DNA of 64,000 bases, taken from positions 290,841 to 354,840 of the forward strand of contig JBKJLI010000003.1 in NCBI GenBank assembly GCA_046597065.1, written 5' to 3'. The notes beneath the pieces were generated by a model that saw nothing but the letters and a program-made list of their open reading frames with translations, made no database searches and was not told where the DNA came from. This document shows positions 15,988-54,422 of this stretch, one piece after another (position 1 is the first letter of the stretch; each line of letters starts with the position of its first letter). The DNA comes from Candidatus Saccharimonadia bacterium. GTDB lineage: Bacteria; Patescibacteriota; Saccharimonadia; UBA4664; SCTI01. The translations under genes were made by a program, and so were the position numbers.

Positions 15988-16015
15988 TTGACACCACAAC
16001 CATTAGCGTTATGAT
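15988..16015 (+). promoter_or_regulatory. Sigma70-like promoter for nrdR: TTGACA, 16 nt spacer, TATGAT. An imperfect palindrome TGTTATacATAACA follows at 16016-16029.
   Basis: Read from sequence. The palindrome immediately downstream of the -10 is a candidate autoregulatory operator. Confidence 0.4.
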
Positions 16016-16053
16016 TGTTATACATAACACTAAATGTGGGGTTTACCGTTCAA

Positions 16054-16515
16054 ATGCGCTGTCCGGATTGTGCTTATATCGACTCTCGAGTTATCGAATC
16101 ACGTGATCTCGAAGAGGGTGGGTCAATTAGACGGCGCCGTCAGTGCTTAAAGTGTAACTTTCGATTTACTACATATGAACGAGTTGAGGCCTCGCGCTTG
16201 GCTGTCATTAAAAAGGATGGCCGCCGCGAGCCATTTAATCGTGCAAAGCTGGCCAGCGGCCTGCACCGAGCAGTTGAAAAGCGGCCGGTAGCTACCGCCA
16301 AAGTCGAGGAGGTTATCGACCTTATAGAGCGTCAATTACGCAGTAGCGGCGACTCAGAGATTGAGGCTTCAAGAATTGGTGAGTTGGTCATGGCCGCTCT
16401 GTTGGAACTCGACGAAGTAGCTTATGTGCGTTTTGCCAGTGTTTACCGCTCATTTACCGATGTGGCGGCCTTTGAAACCGAACTGGCGCGTATAAAATCA
16501 CGCGGCCGGCCATGA
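16054..16515 (+). CDS. nrdR: Transcriptional repressor NrdR
   Basis: MRCPDCAY...CLKCNFRFTT zinc ribbon plus an ATP-cone. Start is set at the internal ATG 16054 rather than the track start 16015. Confidence 0.85.
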   Translation: MRCPDCAYIDSRVIESRDLEEGGSIRRRRQCLKCNFRFTTYERVEASRLAVIKKDGRREPFNRAKLASGLHRAVEKRPVATAKVEEVIDLIERQLRSSGDSEIEASRIGELVMAALLELDEVAYVRFASVYRSFTDVAAFETELARIKSRGRP

Positions 16516-16754: not shown

Positions 16755-19673
16755 ATGACCGACACTCTGGCTGCCGCATCTGTGGCAGCAACACCTGAAC
16801 CCAAGGGCATGACAGTGAAGCGTCGCTTCACCACGCCTGGGGTGCACCCGTTCGACACCGTCGAGTGGGAGTTGCGTGACGCTCGCATTGGACACGGCGA
16901 CAAGGTCGCGTTCGAGCAGAAGGGCGTCGAGTTCCCGACTACCTGGAGCCAGAACTCAACCAACATCGTGGCCCAGAAGTACTTCCGCGGTCAACTGGAC
17001 TCGCCAGCGCGAGAGCGTTCGGTGAAGCAGATGATCTCGCGAGTGGCCAACACCATTACCGAATGGGGCCATGAGCACGGATACTTCGCCACTCAGGAAG
17101 ACGGCGATGCGTTCCAGGACGAGCTGACCTACTTCCTGTTGCACCAGATGGCGGCCTTTAACAGCCCGGTCTGGTTCAATGTCGGGTTTGAAGATCAGCC
17201 GCAGTGCAGCGCCTGCTTCATCCTCAGCGTCGACGACACCCTGGATTCGATTCTGGACTGGAACACCAAGGAAGGTAAGATCTTCCGTGGTGGCTCTGGA
17301 TCGGGCATCAACCTGTCGAACATCCGCGGCTCGGTAGAGCCGTTGAGCAAGGGCGGCACGGCCTCTGGGCCGGTGTCGTTCATGCGCGGGACCGATTCTT
17401 GGGCTGGCACCATCAAGTCCGGCGGCAAGACGCGTCGGGCGGCTAAGATGGTCATCCTCGACATCGATCACCCGGATGTGGGTGAGTTCATCTGGTGCAA
17501 GGCCAAGGAAGAGGACAAGGCCGAGGCCTTGCGCGACGCCGGCTTCGACATGTCGATTGACGGCGAAGGGTTCAAGAGCATCCAGTATCAGAACGCCAAC
17601 AACTCGGTGCGTGTGAGCGATGAGTTCATGCGTGCCGTTGAGGCAGATGAGACATGGGTGCTGAAGGCGCGGGCCGATGGTTTGCCGGTAGGCGAGCCGA
17701 TTCCGGCTCGTGAGCTGATGCGTGACATCGCCAAAGCCGCCTGGCGCTGCGCTGATCCTGGTGTACAGTATGACACCGTGATCAACCAGTGGCACACCTG
17801 CCCGAAGTCTGGGCGCATCAACGCCTCGAACCCCTGCAGCGAGTACATGCATGTCGATAACTCGGCCTGCAACCTCGCCAGCCTCAACCTGATGAAGTTC
17901 CGTCAGCCGGACGGCACGCTGGACGTGGCAGCTTACGAGCATGCCATCGACATCGTGTTCATGGCTCAGGAAATTCTGGTGGGACCGTCGAGCTACCCGA
18001 CCGATGAGATCGGGATCAATGCTCGGGCGTTTCGTCAGCTTGGTATGGGGTACACCAACCTCGGCGCCTACCTGATGGCAGACGGCACTCCGTACGACTC
18101 GGATGCCGCTCGTGGAACGGCAGCGGCCCTTGCGGCGCTGATGACCGGTCGGGCCTATCGCCAGTCAGCCATGATGGCTGATGCAGTCGGCCCGTACGAG
18201 CGCTACCAGCTCAACCACGAGGGTCACATGGGTGTGATGCAGATGCATCGTGATGCGGCCCACGAGCTGCCGGATTCAGGGGTTGCGGATACGGCGTTGC
18301 ATATGGCCGCCCGTAATGCGTGGGACGATGTGGTCGAACTTGGCAACGAGTACGGCTTCCGTAACGCCCAGGCCACGGTGCTCGCGCCGACGGGGACGAT
18401 TTCGTTCCTGATGGACTGCGACACCACAGGTGTTGAGCCGGACTTCTCCTTGGTGAAGTTCAAGGAGCTGGTGGGCGGCGGTCAGATGACCATCGTTAAC
18501 CAGACGATCCCAAGTGCCCTTGCCAATCTTGGGTACACGCCCGAGCAGGTAGAGGCAATCAAGGACTACATCGAGGAGCCGATTCCGGTTGGCGAACCCG
18601 TAGATGGGGTGCAGCTGATGCAGGCTCGTGGCACCATCGTTGGTGCCCCGGGGATCAGCAAAGAGGATCTGCCGGTGTTCGATGTGGCGGTGGGTGAGCG
18701 GGCGATCGCTCCGATGGGTCACATCAAGATGATGGGCGCTGTTCAGCCCTTCATCAGTGGTGCGATCTCGAAGACGGTCAACATGCCGGCTAGCTCGACG
18801 GTCGAAGACATCTACGATGCCTACATGGATTCGTGGAAGCTCGGCGTGAAGGCACTGGCCATCTACCGCGATGGGTCTAAGACGGCCCAGGCGCTGCGCA
18901 CCGATGCGCAGTTGGGCCAGGATGGTGCGGCAGATGAGCCGTTGTTCACACAGGCTCAGGTGGATGAGTTGATCACCAAGGCCAATGGCTCAATCGGCCC
19001 GTTGCGTCGCAAGATGCCTCGGGAGCGACAGTCATTGACCCACAAGTTCACGATCGGTGGACACGAGGGTTACATCACTGCCGGCAAGTACGAGGACGGC
19101 ACGCTGGGTGAGATCTTCCTGACCGACATCGGGAAGGAAGGTTCAACCATGCGAGGGATGATGAACTCCTTCGCCACGATGGTTTCGATCGCGCTCCAGT
19201 ACGGTGTGCCGCTCGAGACTCTGGCAAGGAAGTTCAGCTACGTTCGCTTTGAGCCGGAGGGGATCACACAGAACATCGAGATCCCGTTCGCAAAGAGCAT
19301 GCCCGACTACATCATGCGTTGGTTGGCTTCGCGCTTCCTCGATCCTAGCATTCAGCTGGAATTGGGGATCAGAACGCCGGCCGCCGAAGCATTGAAGGCG
19401 GATCAAGAGGCTGCCACCAGTGTGCTGGAAACAGCTGCACCGGTGGTGAAAACTCCTGCAAAGCCGCCTGGTGCAGAGCTGGGTCCTCAGGGTTCCATTA
19501 CCCACACCGCCGCAGCTGAGGGCAATGGCAACGGAGTTCATCAGCCGGTCATGACACAACACAACGTGCAGTTGGACGCTGGCCCTCCATGCAAAATCTG
19601 TGGAGGCATGACACAGCGTTCGGGAGTCTGCTACGTTTGCTCCCAGTGCGGTGCAACAACCGGTTGCAGTTGA
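16755..19673 (+). CDS. nrdJ: Adenosylcobalamin-dependent (class II) ribonucleoside-diphosphate reductase NrdJ, with C-terminal zinc ribbon
   Basis: 972 aa with class II RNR motifs and a CxxC...CxxC C-terminus. G+C is markedly higher than in flanking genes. SD sequence aggag lies 4 nt upstream. Confidence 0.9.
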   Translation: MTDTLAAASVAATPEPKGMTVKRRFTTPGVHPFDTVEWELRDARIGHGDKVAFEQKGVEFPTTWSQNSTNIVAQKYFRGQLDSPARERSVKQMISRVANTITEWGHEHGYFATQEDGDAFQDELTYFLLHQMAAFNSPVWFNVGFEDQPQCSACFILSVDDTLDSILDWNTKEGKIFRGGSGSGINLSNIRGSVEPLSKGGTASGPVSFMRGTDSWAGTIKSGGKTRRAAKMVILDIDHPDVGEFIWCKAKEEDKAEALRDAGFDMSIDGEGFKSIQYQNANNSVRVSDEFMRAVEADETWVLKARADGLPVGEPIPARELMRDIAKAAWRCADPGVQYDTVINQWHTCPKSGRINASNPCSEYMHVDNSACNLASLNLMKFRQPDGTLDVAAYEHAIDIVFMAQEILVGPSSYPTDEIGINARAFRQLGMGYTNLGAYLMADGTPYDSDAARGTAAALAALMTGRAYRQSAMMADAVGPYERYQLNHEGHMGVMQMHRDAAHELPDSGVADTALHMAARNAWDDVVELGNEYGFRNAQATVLAPTGTISFLMDCDTTGVEPDFSLVKFKELVGGGQMTIVNQTIPSALANLGYTPEQVEAIKDYIEEPIPVGEPVDGVQLMQARGTIVGAPGISKEDLPVFDVAVGERAIAPMGHIKMMGAVQPFISGAISKTVNMPASSTVEDIYDAYMDSWKLGVKALAIYRDGSKTAQALRTDAQLGQDGAADEPLFTQAQVDELITKANGSIGPLRRKMPRERQSLTHKFTIGGHEGYITAGKYEDGTLGEIFLTDIGKEGSTMRGMMNSFATMVSIALQYGVPLETLARKFSYVRFEPEGITQNIEIPFAKSMPDYIMRWLASRFLDPSIQLELGIRTPAAEALKADQEAATSVLETAAPVVKTPAKPPGAELGPQGSITHTAAAEGNGNGVHQPVMTQHNVQLDAGPPCKICGGMTQRSGVCYVCSQCGATTGCS

Positions 19674-49067: not shown

Positions 49068-51647
49068 ATGAATCTGAAAAAAAGCCTAGATAAACTGTTT
49101 GGCGACATCAGCAAGCGCGAGGTCACTAAGGCTCGCCGACTGGTAGAGCAGGCTAACGCGCTCGAAGCCAGCATTAAAAAGCTAACCGATGCCAAGCTAA
49201 AGGCGCGTACGGTTGAGCTAAAGCAGCGGGTAGAGCAGGGAGAAGAGCTCGACAACCTGTTGCCCGAGGCATTCGCAACTGTGCGCGAAGCGGCTCAGCG
49301 AGTAATTGGCCAACGTCACTACGACGTCCAGTTGGTTGGTGGGATAGTTTTACACGATGGCAACATCGCTGAAATGCGCACCGGAGAGGGTAAAACCCTA
49401 GTGGCTACCGCCCCAACTTACCTAAACGCATTGACTGGTAAAGGCGTTCACGTGGTAACAGTAAACGATTATTTAGCGCGGCGTGATGCCGGCTGGATGG
49501 CACAGATTTACCACGCCCTGGGATTAACCACTGGAGTGATCGTGCCCGAAGCCACTTTTGGTGTATCTGCCTATCTGTTCGATCCCGAATTTAATGACGA
49601 GTCGGCCGATGACGATCGTCTGCGTCATCTTCGCCCTGTGCCTCGAGCCGAGGCATATGCTGCCGATATCACTTATGGCACCAACAACGAGTTTGGTTTT
49701 GATTATCTACGCGACAACATGGTTTCGGATGCCGGCCAGATGGTGCAGCGTCCGTTGAATTATGCGATTGTTGATGAGGTTGACTCGATTTTGATTGATG
49801 AGGCCCGCACTCCCTTAATTATTAGTGCACCAGCCGAGGAAAGTACCGATAAGTACAACCAGTTTGCCAAGCTTGCCCACGCTCTTACGCCGGAGGCCGA
49901 TTATACGGTAGATGAAAAAGACCGAGCCGTAAGTTTAACCGAGGAAGGTATCGCTAAGCTCGAAAAAGCCTTAGGCGTCGAAAACATCTACGAATCGGGA
50001 GGCATAGAGGATATTCACCATGTCGAGCAGAGCTTAAAGGCCGAGGCGGTTTACAAACGCGACCGCGACTACGTGGTTCGTGATGGTGAGGTCTTGATTG
50101 TTGATGAGTTCACTGGCCGGTTGCTGCAGGGTAGACGCTATAGCGATGGGCTGCATCAGGCTATCGAAGCCAAAGAAGGTGTACACATTCGCCAGGAATC
50201 ACTAACCCTTGCTACCATCACCTTTCAGAACTACTTTCGGTTATACGCAAAGCTGGCTGGTATGACCGGTACAGCCGAAACCGAAAAAGAAGAGTTCTTT
50301 AAGATTTACCAGCTAGAAGTCGTAATTGTACCAACCCATATGCCGATGATCAGAGAAGACCATGCCGATCGTATTTATCGCAGCGAGATGGGGAAGTTTC
50401 AGGCAGTCGCAAACGAGATTGCCAACCGGAATAAAACCGGCCAACCGGTACTGGTAGGGAGTGCTTCGATCGAAAAAAACGAGCTGCTTAGCCAGATATT
50501 GGGCCAAATGCGCGTAAAGCATGAGATTTTAAACGCTAAGAACAACCAGCAGGAGGCGGCAATTGTGGCTCGGGCTGGTCAAAAAAGCGCCATTACGCTG
50601 GCCACCAACATTGCCGGCCGCGGCACCGATATTGTTTTGGGCGAAGGCGTTACTAATTTGGGGGGCCTGCACGTGATTGGTACTGAGCGTAACGAATCGC
50701 GCCGCATTGATAACCAGTTGCGCGGCCGTGCCGGACGTCAGGGCGACCCCGGCTCCAGCCAGTTTTTTGTTTCACTCGAAGACGATCTGATGCGTATCTT
50801 TGGAGGGGACCGCGTTACTGGTTTGCTGGCCGCTTTGGGGCTTAACGACGACGCACCCCTAGAAAACCCTACTGTTAGCCGCTCACTCGAAAATGCCCAG
50901 AAAAAGGTGGAGGGCCACAACTTTGATATCCGCAAACAGGTGGTGGATTTCGATGACGTCATGAACCGGCACCGTGAGGCAGTTTACGGTCGACGTCGCC
51001 GAGCCATGGAAAATGCCAATTTGCGTTCAGATGTGGAAAAGATGCTCGATACGGAGTTCGATAACCTGGTAGTAACCCATACCGATACCCGAACAGGGGT
51101 TACCGAGATCGATCAGATCATTGAATCTGCCAGTGCCATTATGCCTGTAGAGCCGGCTTTAGTAGATAAACTTAAGCAAACTGACCCCCGCGATCTGTCA
51201 GACACACTCAAAGAGTATGCGCGCGATCTATATAGCGCACGGGAACAGCAGTTTAGCCCAGATGCAACCAGGGTAATGGAGCGATTGGTTTATTTACAGA
51301 TTCTTGATCGACTATGGATTGAGCACCTAGAGGCTATGGAGCGGTTGCGCGAGGGGATTGGTTTGCGCTCAATTGGTCAGCGCGATCCGTTGGTTGAGTA
51401 CAAGAGTGAGGGTTTCAAGCTATTTAAACGCTTACTACAACTACTAGATGCCGAGATTGCCGGCACCATCTTTAGAGTTTCAATAACTCAAGAGCCTACA
51501 CCTGCACCGGTAGAGACGGCCGTTACCAAAGCTGCCGCCCATGCCAATGTGTTAGCAGATACCAGTCAGGCAGGGAGTGATGGAGCTGTAGGTGTAAACC
51601 GAGCTGATCGTAGAGCCTCCAAAAAGGCCCGTAAGCGACGGCGCTGA
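49068..51647 (+). CDS. secA: Preprotein translocase ATPase SecA
   Basis: 859 aa with DEAD-like motor motifs. Confidence 0.95.
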   Translation: MNLKKSLDKLFGDISKREVTKARRLVEQANALEASIKKLTDAKLKARTVELKQRVEQGEELDNLLPEAFATVREAAQRVIGQRHYDVQLVGGIVLHDGNIAEMRTGEGKTLVATAPTYLNALTGKGVHVVTVNDYLARRDAGWMAQIYHALGLTTGVIVPEATFGVSAYLFDPEFNDESADDDRLRHLRPVPRAEAYAADITYGTNNEFGFDYLRDNMVSDAGQMVQRPLNYAIVDEVDSILIDEARTPLIISAPAEESTDKYNQFAKLAHALTPEADYTVDEKDRAVSLTEEGIAKLEKALGVENIYESGGIEDIHHVEQSLKAEAVYKRDRDYVVRDGEVLIVDEFTGRLLQGRRYSDGLHQAIEAKEGVHIRQESLTLATITFQNYFRLYAKLAGMTGTAETEKEEFFKIYQLEVVIVPTHMPMIREDHADRIYRSEMGKFQAVANEIANRNKTGQPVLVGSASIEKNELLSQILGQMRVKHEILNAKNNQQEAAIVARAGQKSAITLATNIAGRGTDIVLGEGVTNLGGLHVIGTERNESRRIDNQLRGRAGRQGDPGSSQFFVSLEDDLMRIFGGDRVTGLLAALGLNDDAPLENPTVSRSLENAQKKVEGHNFDIRKQVVDFDDVMNRHREAVYGRRRRAMENANLRSDVEKMLDTEFDNLVVTHTDTRTGVTEIDQIIESASAIMPVEPALVDKLKQTDPRDLSDTLKEYARDLYSAREQQFSPDATRVMERLVYLQILDRLWIEHLEAMERLREGIGLRSIGQRDPLVEYKSEGFKLFKRLLQLLDAEIAGTIFRVSITQEPTPAPVETAVTKAAAHANVLADTSQAGSDGAVGVNRADRRASKKARKRRR

Positions 51648-51742
51648 TCCAATTATTCTATAATCATTAGAACTTTATACAATTATCAACTGTCAGATTA
51701 ACCAATCTGAGTGTAAACGTTAGAATTATCACCTATAAACTA

Positions 51743-51771
51743 TTGACAAATAACACAATTAATGCTATATT
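51743..51771 (+). promoter_or_regulatory. Strong sigma70-like promoter: TTGACA, 17 nt spacer, TATATT
   Basis: Consensus -35 element, 17 nt spacer and a good -10 element in an AT-rich intergenic region. Confidence 0.5.
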
Positions 51772-51777
51772 AGCTCA

Positions 51778-51990
51778 TTCACTCTGAATGGGTGTTGAGG
51801 CGGATTCAGAAAGTCTGCTTGGACACACTTCACCGAGAGGATCGTTGACAAGCTGGATAGTCATGGGTCGCTTAAGATCCATGCGACTACTTTAAATATT
51901 GAGAGTTACAGCTTAGGGTTTTGACCTTATGGGCAACACTCTGCAAATGTACCCGTGCCGCCCACGGTACATTTGCAGGTTGTTGTTTGT
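51778..51990 (+). ncRNA. Candidate ~210 nt non-coding RNA or attenuator leader, running from the predicted TSS to a strong intrinsic terminator
   Basis: The promoter above is followed ~165 nt later by a 16 bp stem (ctgcaaatgtacc-c-gtg / cacggtacatttgcag, one bulge) and ttgttgtttgt. It contains internal hairpins and only a 34-codon ORF with no SD. Confidence 0.35.
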
Positions 51991-52125
51991 AAGCGTTGAA
52001 ACACAAAGGCCACGTGCTTTCAACTTAACCCCGTTCATCCAGAAAGGATGATGCCTCGTGGCAACTGACAGCAGGATGGTCGGGGGAAACTTCCTGGCCA
52101 CAACGACCACCAAGGAGAAGTGACG

Positions 52126-53355
52126 ATGCGCTCCATGCTCATCAAGCTGTTCCTGGTCGCGCTCGTCGCGGCCATCTTCACCATCCCGGCAGTGGCCTCG
52201 GCCGCTTCCACGGCACCGGTCGCTCACGCGGCTTCGTCGTACTGCGGCCCCCCGGCCATGAACAAGACCCAGTGGGTTTCGTTCTGGAGAGACCATCCGA
52301 ACTCGTCGCTCACCAAGAGCTTCGAACGGCTGGTCCGAGCGGACGCCAAGCACACCCACATCAAGAAGGATCAGACCTTCTTGTCGTGGGCTCAGTCCCC
52401 GAACATCAAGATCGTCAGGACACCGCCTGGCTACAGGCTGGATTCCAACACCTATTGCCCTGGTGGGCAGTACCAGCCGTATCCAGATCTCCTGGGCTAC
52501 GGCAACCAACTCACGCCTTCATGGTGTGAGGGTGGCGCGAAGCCGTCCACGACGGTGACGAAGGTGCAAAAGCGTGGCAAGTGGTACTACAAGTACACCA
52601 CCACTGTCACTGAGTCCTGCGCGCCTCTCGCCAAGGGATACTGCCGCAACCGGGCGACTGGGAAGTCGTTCAAGGTCGTCAAGCGCAAGGTGACGTATAA
52701 GCGCATCAAGCACAAGACGCCCAAGTGCGGCTGCAAGCCCAAGCCCAAGCCGCCGCCTGCACAGGTCAACTACTGCCCCAACGGTTCGCCGGTGGTCAGC
52801 GGTGTTGCCTGTGTCAATCAGTCTCAAGCCCAGGAGGTCAAGCAGGACTGCAAGGGTCCGAACGTTGACAGCACTCAGTGCATCAGCATTCAGATCCAGC
52901 AGCAGATCGTGTGCGGCAACGGCACGATCATCATCGGGAGCAGTACCACGACGTCGACCACTGGTGACCAGTGCAACACGGTCATCGTGGTGCCACCCCC
53001 GCCGCCGCCGGTCTGCATCCCGCCGACCACCGGTACGTACCCGAACTGTCAGGTTCCCACCTGTCCGGCGGGCACAACCGGTACCTACCCGGTCTGCAAT
53101 GCTCCGGCGGTTTGCCCCGCTGGTGACCTGCAGGCAACCGACACCACCTTGAGTGGCTTCGGTTACCGTACTGGTGACTTTCTCGGCATTGCCGGGGGGT
53201 ATTTCCAGTACTACGTTCGGGCTGATGGTTCGGGCAAGCTGTTCTTTGCGAAGGATTACACCTCGGTGCAGTCCAGTTACACGAACGGCAGCCCGATCTG
53301 TGGCAAGGCCAACCCGGCCGGCCCCGGAGGCACACCGCCTCCGCCGTCGCCGTAG
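52126..53355 (+). CDS. Secreted Cys-rich, Pro-rich protein encoded in a high-G+C island
   Basis: SD sequence aaggag lies 8 nt before the ATG. It has a signal peptide, many Cys residues, a PPPPPPP linker and strong GC3 bias. Antisense ORFs here are artefacts of the G+C content. Confidence 0.55.
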   Translation: MRSMLIKLFLVALVAAIFTIPAVASAASTAPVAHAASSYCGPPAMNKTQWVSFWRDHPNSSLTKSFERLVRADAKHTHIKKDQTFLSWAQSPNIKIVRTPPGYRLDSNTYCPGGQYQPYPDLLGYGNQLTPSWCEGGAKPSTTVTKVQKRGKWYYKYTTTVTESCAPLAKGYCRNRATGKSFKVVKRKVTYKRIKHKTPKCGCKPKPKPPPAQVNYCPNGSPVVSGVACVNQSQAQEVKQDCKGPNVDSTQCISIQIQQQIVCGNGTIIIGSSTTTSTTGDQCNTVIVVPPPPPPVCIPPTTGTYPNCQVPTCPAGTTGTYPVCNAPAVCPAGDLQATDTTLSGFGYRTGDFLGIAGGYFQYYVRADGSGKLFFAKDYTSVQSSYTNGSPICGKANPAGPGGTPPPPSP

Positions 53356-53397
53356 GGCAGAAGCAGAAGTAGTCGCGCTCCGAAAGGAGTAACGGTT

Positions 53398-53424
53398 GGG
53401 GGTCGAGCTTTTAGCTCGACCCCC
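53398..53424 (+). terminator. GC-rich hairpin (gggggtcgagc / gctcgaccccc) after the Cys-rich gene
   Basis: Perfect 11 bp inverted repeat with no strong T-tract. Confidence 0.4.
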
Positions 53425-53591
53425 GCCGTACCACTTGTTACTCATGACTATCCAGTTTGCTGATCCCTCACATGAGGTGGTTCTTTAACAATTTAAGCTA
53501 CTGATTAACAAATTTACGAACCCAACCTGTGAATTAAATTAACAAACTCATACTTGTCGGCGCTAATGTCGACTTGAGAGGAGAGTAAACC

Positions 53592-54422
53592 ATGAAACTT
53601 ACCAAGACTCGAATAGCTGCTGCTGTTGCCACTAGTGCAATTGCAGTTGCGCTTCCAATCGCTGCTTTAGCGGCTTTTGGTCCCGATCGTCAAACCTATG
53701 TCTGTGGCCAGGCTGGCATCTGCCAGGGTGCTGACCACGTTCAGTTTGACTCTTTTACCAATAACCCAAGCTACGATCAGCATGATGAGCGTAACTTCTT
53801 AACCATTCGTCCGGCTGCCGGAGGTGCTTACACCGATGTGCAGACCCTAACGGTTGGTCAAGAGTATGTCGTTCGTGCTTACGTACACAACAATGCCGAT
53901 CCAGCGTTAACCAACACACCCAGCGATTACACCGCCGAAAACACCGCCTTTAAGGTGGCAATTCCTAGCGAAGTAAACGGTGACGCGTTGGTTACCGGTA
54001 CCATTTCAGCTTCAAACGCTCAGCCAGGTAGTGTTTATGACACTGTTAGCCTAAAGAGTGGTGAAAAGCTAAAGCTAAACTACGTGGCCGGTTCGGCCAA
54101 GTGGACCAGCAATGGTGCTTCTAACGGTGCTGCTTTAAGCGACAACGTTTTAACTAGTGGCGCTTTACTTGGTTACGATAGCCTAAACGGTGAACTACCA
54201 GGATGCTTCGGCTTTTCCGGTTATGTCAGCCTAAAGGTTAAGGCCGAGAAAATCGAAACTCCAGTAACCCCACCCGTTACTACCACCCCAACTGCCTTAC
54301 CGCAGACAGGTGCTGAAGCCGCCGGCCTAGCCGGTGTCGCCGGAACCGGTGTTGTTGGTTACGCTGCTATGGCTTATCGCCGCAGCAAGCGTGCCCTCGC
54401 TACCGCCATCCGCAACAAGTAA
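53592..54422 (+). CDS. LPXTG-anchored cell-wall surface protein (sortase substrate)
   Basis: Signal peptide, then an LPQTG motif followed by a hydrophobic stretch and an RRSKR tail. Confidence 0.8.
   Translation: MKLTKTRIAAAVATSAIAVALPIAALAAFGPDRQTYVCGQAGICQGADHVQFDSFTNNPSYDQHDERNFLTIRPAAGGAYTDVQTLTVGQEYVVRAYVHNNADPALTNTPSDYTAENTAFKVAIPSEVNGDALVTGTISASNAQPGSVYDTVSLKSGEKLKLNYVAGSAKWTSNGASNGAALSDNVLTSGALLGYDSLNGELPGCFGFSGYVSLKVKAEKIETPVTPPVTTTPTALPQTGAEAAGLAGVAGTGVVGYAAMAYRRSKRALATAIRNK

Follow-up and report, generated by a model that had tools for sequence, protein, structure and literature searches.

A G+C-rich secreted-protein gene of Saccharimonadia, apparently native, in a conserved cassette with a candidate 5'/3' mRNA clamp

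Introduction

In 16S/23S rRNA operons, the flanks pair with each other to form processing stems, and cleavage by RNase III frees the enclosed RNA. A related arrangement is proposed here for the mRNA of a G+C-rich gene encoding a secreted Cys-rich protein, located between secA and a gene for an LPXTG-type surface protein in a 64-kb stretch of DNA (contig JBKJLI010000003.1; hereafter the window) from a Saccharimonadia bacterium (TM7, candidate phyla radiation (CPR)). The likeness to the rRNA stems lies in a long duplex around a long, G+C-rich, highly structured and strongly transcribed RNA, but the enclosed RNA is protein-coding here, and its cleavage is a prediction. The original prediction for this locus took the gene for a horizontal acquisition, possibly from a high-G+C host. 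The comparisons described below point to a native gene that was inherited in place with its LPXTG-type neighbour and was not recently imported. The reading preferred here, to which a probability of roughly 0.55 is given, is that of a native, fast-evolving secreted-protein gene in a conserved cassette with an mRNA 5'/3' clamp.

In the hbs mRNA of Bacillus subtilis, pairing of the 5'-untranslated region (UTR) with the 3' UTR controls ribonuclease access and mRNA stability (PMC5737220). The cassette resembles hbs in its paired untranslated ends, and hbs itself is strongly expressed, with a structured 5' UTR and a strong Shine-Dalgarno (SD) sequence. In comparison with hbs, the predicted duplex of the cassette is much longer (20-34 bp), is separated by ~250 nt from the SD downstream of it and has 1.3-4.5 kb between its strands; its conservation is class-wide and covarying, and its cargo is G+C-rich. 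In Staphylococcus aureus, the 3' UTR of icaR pairs with its own 5' UTR and forms an RNase III substrate (PMC3868564). There, translation is repressed through masking of the SD by the 3' UTR, whereas the paired leader segment of the cassette is far from the SD, so that repression by masking is unlikely.

Genes for S-layer and other abundant surface proteins have long stabilising 5' leaders. A strong promoter, a long structured leader and a secreted product are shared by the gene described here, but its protein is Cys-rich and without a known S-layer or anchoring domain. The gene downstream of it resembles those of LPXTG substrates in encoding a signal peptide, an LPQTG motif, a hydrophobic stretch and a basic tail; it differs in the unusual length of the tail (RRSKRALATAIRNK), and the protein matched no NCBIfam family at E<=0.01 and no Pfam anchor-domain family at E<=1.

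Saccharimonadia are obligate epibionts, and the surface proteins that decide their attachment to the host are mostly unannotated. In Saccharimonadia, among them Ca. Mycosynbacter amalyticus, Pam pili are encoded by a pam operon beside the ATP synthase genes and consist of Ig-like pilins (bioRxiv 10.64898/2026.03.03.709456). For M. amalyticus, there is also a published proteome, in which about 75% of the predicted proteins are represented. The pilins and the protein studied here are alike in being CPR-restricted, unannotated, secreted surface proteins with paired cysteines that were identified only by structure. According to the description in that paper, the two are distinct, since the present gene lies elsewhere in the genome and its modelled domain is alpha/beta; identity with the Pam pilus operon was rejected on the ground of the different locus.

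Architecture of the cassette

The gene order at the locus is hpf, secA, Cys-rich gene, LPXTG gene, prfB, ftsE and ftsX, with an interval of 478 nt between secA and the Cys-rich gene. Related loci, designated by L-numbers, came chiefly from a secA scan of species representatives, in which the nearest secA genes (70-74% identity) were only those of Saccharimonadia/Saccharimonadales metagenome-assembled genomes. The cassette is made up of a promoter, a leader, a G+C-rich cargo gene, a hairpin without a U tract and a 3' complement of the leader, with the anchor gene next to it. The features in the window are as follows.

51743 to 51771, + strand: near-consensus extended -10 promoter (TTGACA, 17 nt ending in TG, TATATT), 11 of 12 consensus positions
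51779 to 52125, + strand: structured 5' leader of ~345 nt, its start placed from the promoter and its end at the start codon
51836 to 51880, + strand: 5' arm with core CAAGCTGGATAGTCATGGGT at 51849-51868, overlapping the 5' strand of a local hairpin (51855-51890)
51929 to 51991, + strand: leader hairpin b, a long stem with covariation and an invariant apical UG[CCGCC]CA at 51956-51964
52112 to 52117, + strand: SD sequence AAGGAG, 8 nt before the ATG, conserved in L001
52126 to 53355, + strand: coding sequence (CDS) of the 409-aa secreted Cys/Pro/Lys-rich protein, ATG at 52126, alternative GTG at 52120
52993 to 53010, + strand: PPPPPP run in the translation, residues 290-295
53026 to 53105, + strand: two C-x2-G-x2-GTYP-x-C repeats, CIPPTTGTYPNC and CPAGTTGTYPVC (direct repeat D1)
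53398 to 53424, + strand: GC-rich 3' hairpin with a 12-bp perfect stem and no U tract
53428 to 53475, + strand: 3' arm with core ACTCATGACTATCCAGTTTG at 53440-53459, just past the 3' hairpin
53592 to 54422, + strand: 276-aa LPQTG-type surface-anchor protein, G+C content 0.52

Complementarity and covariation of the two arms

The cores of the two arms were complementary over 20 nt at 90% (repeat finder), and both non-matches were G·U. The calculated duplex energy was -46.5 kcal/mol, in comparison with -19.5 +/- 3.4 kcal/mol for shuffled partners (z about -8). The 3' arm was the best sense-strand partner of the 5' arm across the 64 kb, and the competing local hairpin at the 5' arm reached only -14 kcal/mol. 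A complement of 20-34 bp enclosing 1.3-4.5 kb was present in 12 loci, and also in L089.

The sequences of the two arms co-vary between loci: GGATAGTCAT in most loci, GGATAGATAA in L008, GAATAGTCAA in L011, ATCGGATAGTCTATG in L026, CTAGATAGTTAT in L089 and CCGG/CCGG in L084. In a gap-free alignment of the arms, 78% of the cells were paired in the true register and 28-39% in slid registers; two-sided changes were seen in 27 of the 36 arm pairs, and none of 500 shuffles reached the observed values. These counts, like all covariation counts in this study, come from related sequences and do not represent independent events. When the transition cells other than Watson-Crick pairs were read on the sense strand, 27 were G·U and 4 were A·C, an imbalance that is not predicted by a strand-symmetric DNA site.

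The stem of the 3' hairpin is followed by GCCGTACCACTTG and was not called as an intrinsic terminator. Equivalent hairpins lacking a U tract occur in L001, L084, L089 and L090. In the stretch from the 3' arm to the anchor gene, a scan detected no promoter-like site. With neither a U tract nor an intervening promoter, both arms and the anchor gene are plausibly carried on one transcript. Homologs of the anchor gene follow the 3' arm in L001, L004, L007, L027, L048, L084, L090 and L091. By inspection, the anchor protein has the signal peptide MKLTKTRIAAAVATSAIAVALPIAALA, and its C-terminus reads LPQTG-AEAAGLAGVAGTGVVGYAAMAY-RRSKR..., in the order motif, hydrophobic segment and basic tail; the LPXTG sorting signal is conserved in the homologs of L001, L004, L008 and L027.

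The conserved leader

Each of 18 related loci has a promoter of the form TTGAC(A)-17-TGn-TAnnnT at a distance of 54-83 nt upstream of the leader model. Between the window and L001, the leader region showed a mean column identity of 84% (gap columns excluded) and the CDS a nucleotide identity of 66%. In hairpin b, 19 of the 24 predicted pairs were kept through two-sided changes (13 sequences). The covariance model R1, which was built from 13 sequences, gave one match per locus on the + strand, co-oriented with secA, in 21 sources (the window and 20 loci). All of these sources are Saccharimonadia-type, eight of the matched loci are outside the training set, and the window holds one copy. R1 matched none of the secA loci of more remote origin, which include Parcubacteria, Bacillus and Chloroflexi. 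The comparison of the leader with Rfam at E<=10 returned chance-level hairpin matches only, and no Rfam family was found in the 64-kb window at gathering thresholds. A riboswitch was rejected because of the missing Rfam match and the variable spacer of 60-200 nt that parts the conserved hairpins from the SD.

In distant relatives, the leader heads a G+C-rich operon of several genes for unannotated proteins, some of which are Pro/Cys-rich and membrane-bound or secreted. Pfam and NCBIfam scans of the cargo proteins of the other loci gave nothing informative. The first genes of these operons in distant Saccharimonadia (L023, 10402-11322; L025, 12346-13341; L015, 5932-6786; L010, 6133-6798) encode a conserved, non-secreted protein of ~300 aa with the motif ...C.(L/M)CG...RFRRLHLL(C/H)SVWEE..., which matched neither Pfam nor NCBIfam. 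The genes for Pro/Ala-rich membrane proteins come after this first gene.

In the most distant family members, L085 (186-530), L089 (~370-780) and L091 (1-240), the CCGCC hairpin is replaced by other structure, so that two variants of the leader, at the least, exist. These three loci retain the 5' arm together with its local hairpin, and their R1 scores are only 13-21 bits.

Evidence for inheritance of the gene in place

The ortholog of the Cys-rich gene in L001 occupies the same position, between the 3' end of secA (82% identity) and the ortholog of the LPXTG gene (81-82%), and has a G+C content at third codon positions (GC3) of 0.87 on a background of ~0.6. The synonymous divergence (dS) between the window and L001 was 0.88 for the Cys-rich gene and 0.84 for the LPXTG gene, and the ratio of nonsynonymous to synonymous divergence (dN/dS) was 0.41 for the Cys-rich gene, 0.15 for the LPXTG gene and 0.07 for secA. 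The matching dS values and the low dN/dS of the LPXTG gene and secA indicate that the Cys-rich gene was co-inherited with its neighbour and evolves fast as a protein.

The G+C richness extends beyond this pair of loci. Among the family genes measured, 9 of 11 were GC3-rich (0.66-0.95) between flanks of 0.44-0.59 G+C, the values besides those of the window and L001 being 0.95, 0.91, 0.91, 0.88, 0.77, 0.71 and 0.66. In 10 of the 12 two-arm loci, the G+C content between the arms exceeded that of the flanks by 0.07-0.17 whatever the cargo genes, and this arm-bounded rise held even where the cargo is unrelated to the Cys-rich family. All family members with readable DNA have the flanking repeat arms, and most of them also have the leader. 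An ortholog or an equivalent cassette is found at the corresponding locus across Saccharimonadia. Taken from these comparisons, the high G+C content appears to be an old and maintained property of the cassette or its transcription unit.

The island was also compared with mobile DNA. Atypical composition, one sign of a genomic island, was found, while site absence or patchiness, donor homologs and mobility signatures were not. No integrase or transposase was noticed among the translations of adjacent open reading frames (ORFs), which were read by eye and not profile-scanned. By inspection, there was no target-site duplication at the arms, the repeats being inverted and inside a conserved transcription unit. 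A transposon or mobile insertion cassette was rejected on the basis of the missing transposase and target duplication and of the leader, which runs continuously across the left arm. A diversity-generating retroelement target was rejected as well, as no pair of template and variable repeats was found; there were no direct repeats of >32 nt in 51600-53650 and no adjacent reverse-transcriptase-like ORF.

The Cys-rich protein and its family

The ATG at 52126 is taken as the start of the 409-aa product because AAGGAG precedes it at a spacing of 8 nt that is kept in the ortholog. The N-terminus resembles a Sec signal, with MRSMLIK, a hydrophobic stretch and AVASA|AS (about residues 1-26, by inspection). 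The protein contains 45 Pro, 41 Thr, 29 Lys and 19 Cys, including the Lys patch KSFKVVKRKVTYKRIKHKTPKCGCKPKPKPPP at residues ~180-213, and its C-terminal end is PPPPSP. The original prediction was thus correct on the 409-aa product, the signal peptide and the Lys richness, whereas its count of more than 30 cysteines has to be lowered to 19 and its run of seven prolines to six. The surroundings that it described were also found: AT-rich DNA in the promoter region upstream, the 12-bp GC hairpin downstream and, immediately after it, an LPXTG gene of native G+C content (0.52).

The G+C content of the gene is 0.62, and 0.51, 0.54 and 0.80 at the three codon positions, with A at 4% of the third positions. 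The GC3 of secA, the LPXTG gene, prfB, ftsE and ftsX is 0.46-0.53, and of the ~60 ORFs in the window, no more than two approach the value of the Cys-rich gene: an NrdJ-like gene (0.74) and a doubtful ORF of 104 aa (0.76). The predicted high-G+C island is therefore confirmed, and its deviation in composition is genuine and far exceeds chance.

Family membership was defined by an exhaustive HMMER profile scan of 1.84 billion representatives, which retrieved 47 proteins, none of them annotated. About 38 of the 47 share an N-terminal domain of 125-175 residues, corresponding to residues ~39-200 of the window protein, with the consensus YCGP...DQ.F...P.GY.L..NT.C...KGYCRN. Residues C40, G41, D82, P100, N108, C111, K170, C173 and N175 are invariant in the family alignments, and a variable beta-hairpin insertion sits between two conserved cysteines of the domain. 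The domain is followed by a linker rich in Lys and Pro, a Cys-rich stretch, runs of proline and C-termini that vary between members; four members have PKD domains. AlphaFold2 with a 38-sequence alignment gave a predicted local distance difference test score of 91-98 at residues ~40-200 and <50 elsewhere. The model suggests an undescribed alpha/beta domain without a solved structural relative, and a sequence search of the PDB returned only zinc-finger CxxC noise.

Word-indexed searches were less productive. They yielded one real homolog, P0002, on a 4-kb contig (53% identity by BLAST, 60% over aligned columns); of the searches with family alignments, A5 gave four matches swamped by Pro-rich words and A6 gave none. 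The family is small and fast-evolving and has so far been seen only in Saccharimonadia-type (TM7) contexts. The protein looks to be exported through Sec and is probably disulfide-bonded.

A repeat of the form C-P-x-G-x-x-G-T-Y-P-x-C recurs in otherwise unrelated secreted proteins such as P0003, which carries precomputed Pfam hits PF01471 and PF02177, and is present in the window protein (53026-53105) and in the family members P0043, P0048 and others. The repeat itself matched no Pfam model.

Cause of the G+C richness

The G+C richness possibly results from selection on the mRNA or from GC-biased gene conversion at a recombination-prone surface locus. Expression-linked codon bias was rejected, as GC3 is ~0.5 in tsf and the genes for ribosomal proteins of the window. 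Structure in the family CDSs greatly exceeded that of their synonymous shuffles (z -3.7 to -8.5), in comparison with a mean z of about -0.9 for 25 genes of ordinary GC3.

The gene that served as the G+C-rich control encodes an NrdJ-like ribonucleotide reductase of 972 aa (16755-19673, + strand; reading of the translation). It follows an nrdR-like gene (16015-16515) and has the same codon pattern as the Cys-rich gene, with A at 8% of its third positions. No clamp or flanking inverted repeat was found around this island.

Proposed mechanism and alternative explanations

According to the proposed mechanism, base pairing of the leader segment with the 3' segment would draw the mRNA into a closed loop. 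The duplex would act as a processing and stabilising element, possibly as an RNase III site. Cleavage at the duplex would free the cargo mRNA from that of the anchor gene transcribed with it, and the cleaved duplex would shield both ends of the cargo mRNA, with strong and lasting expression of a surface or host-contact protein as the outcome. Arm pairing, processing or stabilisation, co-transcription and surface function are all inferred from sequence comparison in this scheme. The surface character of the locus, which the original prediction had proposed, is supported by the adjacency of a secreted-protein gene and an LPXTG-type gene in every related locus that reaches far enough. A wider proposal can be offered tentatively, at less than even odds: a class-wide "clamped mRNA" device of Saccharimonadia, in which a consensus promoter, a CCGCC-loop leader, a covarying 20-34 bp duplex and a cargo with near-pure G/C at third codon positions would make the messages of fast-evolving surface or host-contact proteins last exceptionally long in cells whose capacity for transcription and translation is very low.

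Recent horizontal acquisition from a high-G+C donor, for example an actinobacterial host, is very improbable. The GC3 of 0.80 against about 0.50 in the neighbours speaks for it, as does the scarcity of third-position A, a codon pattern typical of high-G+C genomes that is shared with the NrdJ-like gene; some of the literature, moreover, describes cultured Saccharibacteria as living on Actinomycetota hosts. These points are opposed by the L001 ortholog, which stands in the same order with a dS equal to that of the neighbouring gene, and by the absence of homologs outside the ~40-member family in the 1.84 billion representatives scanned with HMMER. The gene is surrounded by a promoter, leader and arms that are specific to the lineage and kept throughout the class, the G+C enrichment is family-wide and arm-bounded even with different cargo, and the window contains no tRNA gene in addition to lacking a visible integrase or transposase in the adjacent ORFs. 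The original prediction is therefore not upheld in respect of horizontal transfer. It had named typical G+C content and vertical inheritance as the contrary outcome; the inheritance does look vertical, while the G+C content is truly atypical. The probability is negligible that the true product is an antisense ORF or that the sense ORF is an artefact of G+C-rich DNA. Such DNA does hold long ORFs in several frames, and one of 308 aa lies on the - strand (52519-53445), spanning the G+C-rich gene and the 3' hairpin. Its product, however, which runs through the hairpin, is Arg/Gly-rich nonsense of the kind that GC3-rich genes typically give when read in reverse, and there is almost no chance that this ORF is a gene. 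In favour of the sense ORF are its conserved start and SD, its signal peptide, its G+C peak at the third codon position, an ortholog of 53-60% identity with dN/dS well below 1, and a domain confidently modelled by AlphaFold2 from the 38-member alignment.

Two further explanations invoke recombination at the arms or around them. If the arms were the sites of a site-specific recombinase that inverts the segment, they would form an ON/OFF phase switch of the surface protein, their likeness would be upheld by recombination, and the G+C content might be raised by biased gene conversion. Like invertons, the loci have inverted repeats around a surface-protein segment, 20-34 bp long in 12 loci and changing together; phase variation commonly targets surface proteins, the 12-nt core is nearly invariant, as for a protein-binding site, and in some loci the 5' arm resembles two inverted half-sites (CTTGAAAACC / GGTCTTCAAG) around GGATAGTCAT, a resemblance that is weak in the window. 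Inversion is nevertheless unlikely. The orientation of the segment relative to the promoter is identical in all two-arm loci, although these are consensus assemblies in which minority orientations would be missed; the segment does not include the promoter, and no other gene would be exposed by inverting it. The differences between the arms are strand-asymmetric, and no recombinase was seen by eye in the nearby ORFs of the window, which were not profile-scanned, though one could act in trans. Somewhat more credible, yet still on the unlikely side, is a recombination hot spot that exchanges surface-protein cassettes among Saccharimonadia, with the leader and the anchor gene as homology arms and the G+C richness as a side effect of gene conversion with a GC bias and not of mRNA selection. 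This could coexist with an RNA clamp. It would fit the cargo that differs between loci beside a conserved leader, arms and anchor gene, the fast protein evolution (dN/dS 0.41) and the confinement of the G+C rise between the arms. On the other hand, the similar dS of cargo and neighbour between the window and L001 argues against a replacement since their split, and the NrdJ-like gene is equally G+C-rich without such an architecture; the comparison has a single sequence per lineage.

The reading of a native gene in a cassette with an mRNA clamp has its own difficulties. A DNA inverted repeat kept alike by recombination would also give covariation of the arms, and the near-invariance of the 12-nt core points to recognition of a specific sequence and not to pairing alone. 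Part of the G·U excess could reflect the local hairpin that constrains the 5' arm. In this lineage, transcription could still end at the GC hairpin, which would leave the 3' arm outside most transcripts. The family genes in L004 and L027 are without G+C enrichment, and the NrdJ-like control was as structured as the family CDSs (z -8.3 and -4.9). Since the control behaves alike, CDS structure was not counted as specific evidence, and selection for it was dropped as a specific explanation. An ancient acquisition by the ancestor of the class would also be compatible with the inheritance observed, and the function of the protein is a putative one, read from its composition and neighbourhood.

The analysis defines a class-wide surface-protein locus and a new secreted family with a confidently modelled, unclassified domain. 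It further provides a new conserved RNA element and a candidate long-range mRNA clamp that are directly testable in the few strains in culture. If the clamp does stabilise the message, it would be the most extensive conserved bacterial 5'/3' mRNA pairing known to us. For genome scans, the locus is a caution that a sharp G+C island in genomes of this class can be a stable inherited trait of one transcription unit and not a trace of horizontal transfer.

Neighbourhood and minor observations

No tRNA gene was found in the 64-kb window, despite the ribosomal protein and translation factor genes there. Searches with LPXTG-protein patterns found no relative in genome contigs and only two distant loci in metagenomes.

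The sequence separating secA from the cassette was inspected in L004, L007, L008, L010, L013, L014, L025 and L027. A murD-like gene lies between secA and the leader in most relatives, and an additional gene, read as an M16-type peptidase, lies there in several. The cassette adjoins secA directly in the window and in L001, which indicates that the neighbourhood was rearranged in this lineage.

In L084 (107-217), the called start of the family member P0011 falls inside the leader hairpin. The first ~37 residues of P0011 are probably an annotation overcall, and its true start is likely MTRSKRII at 218.

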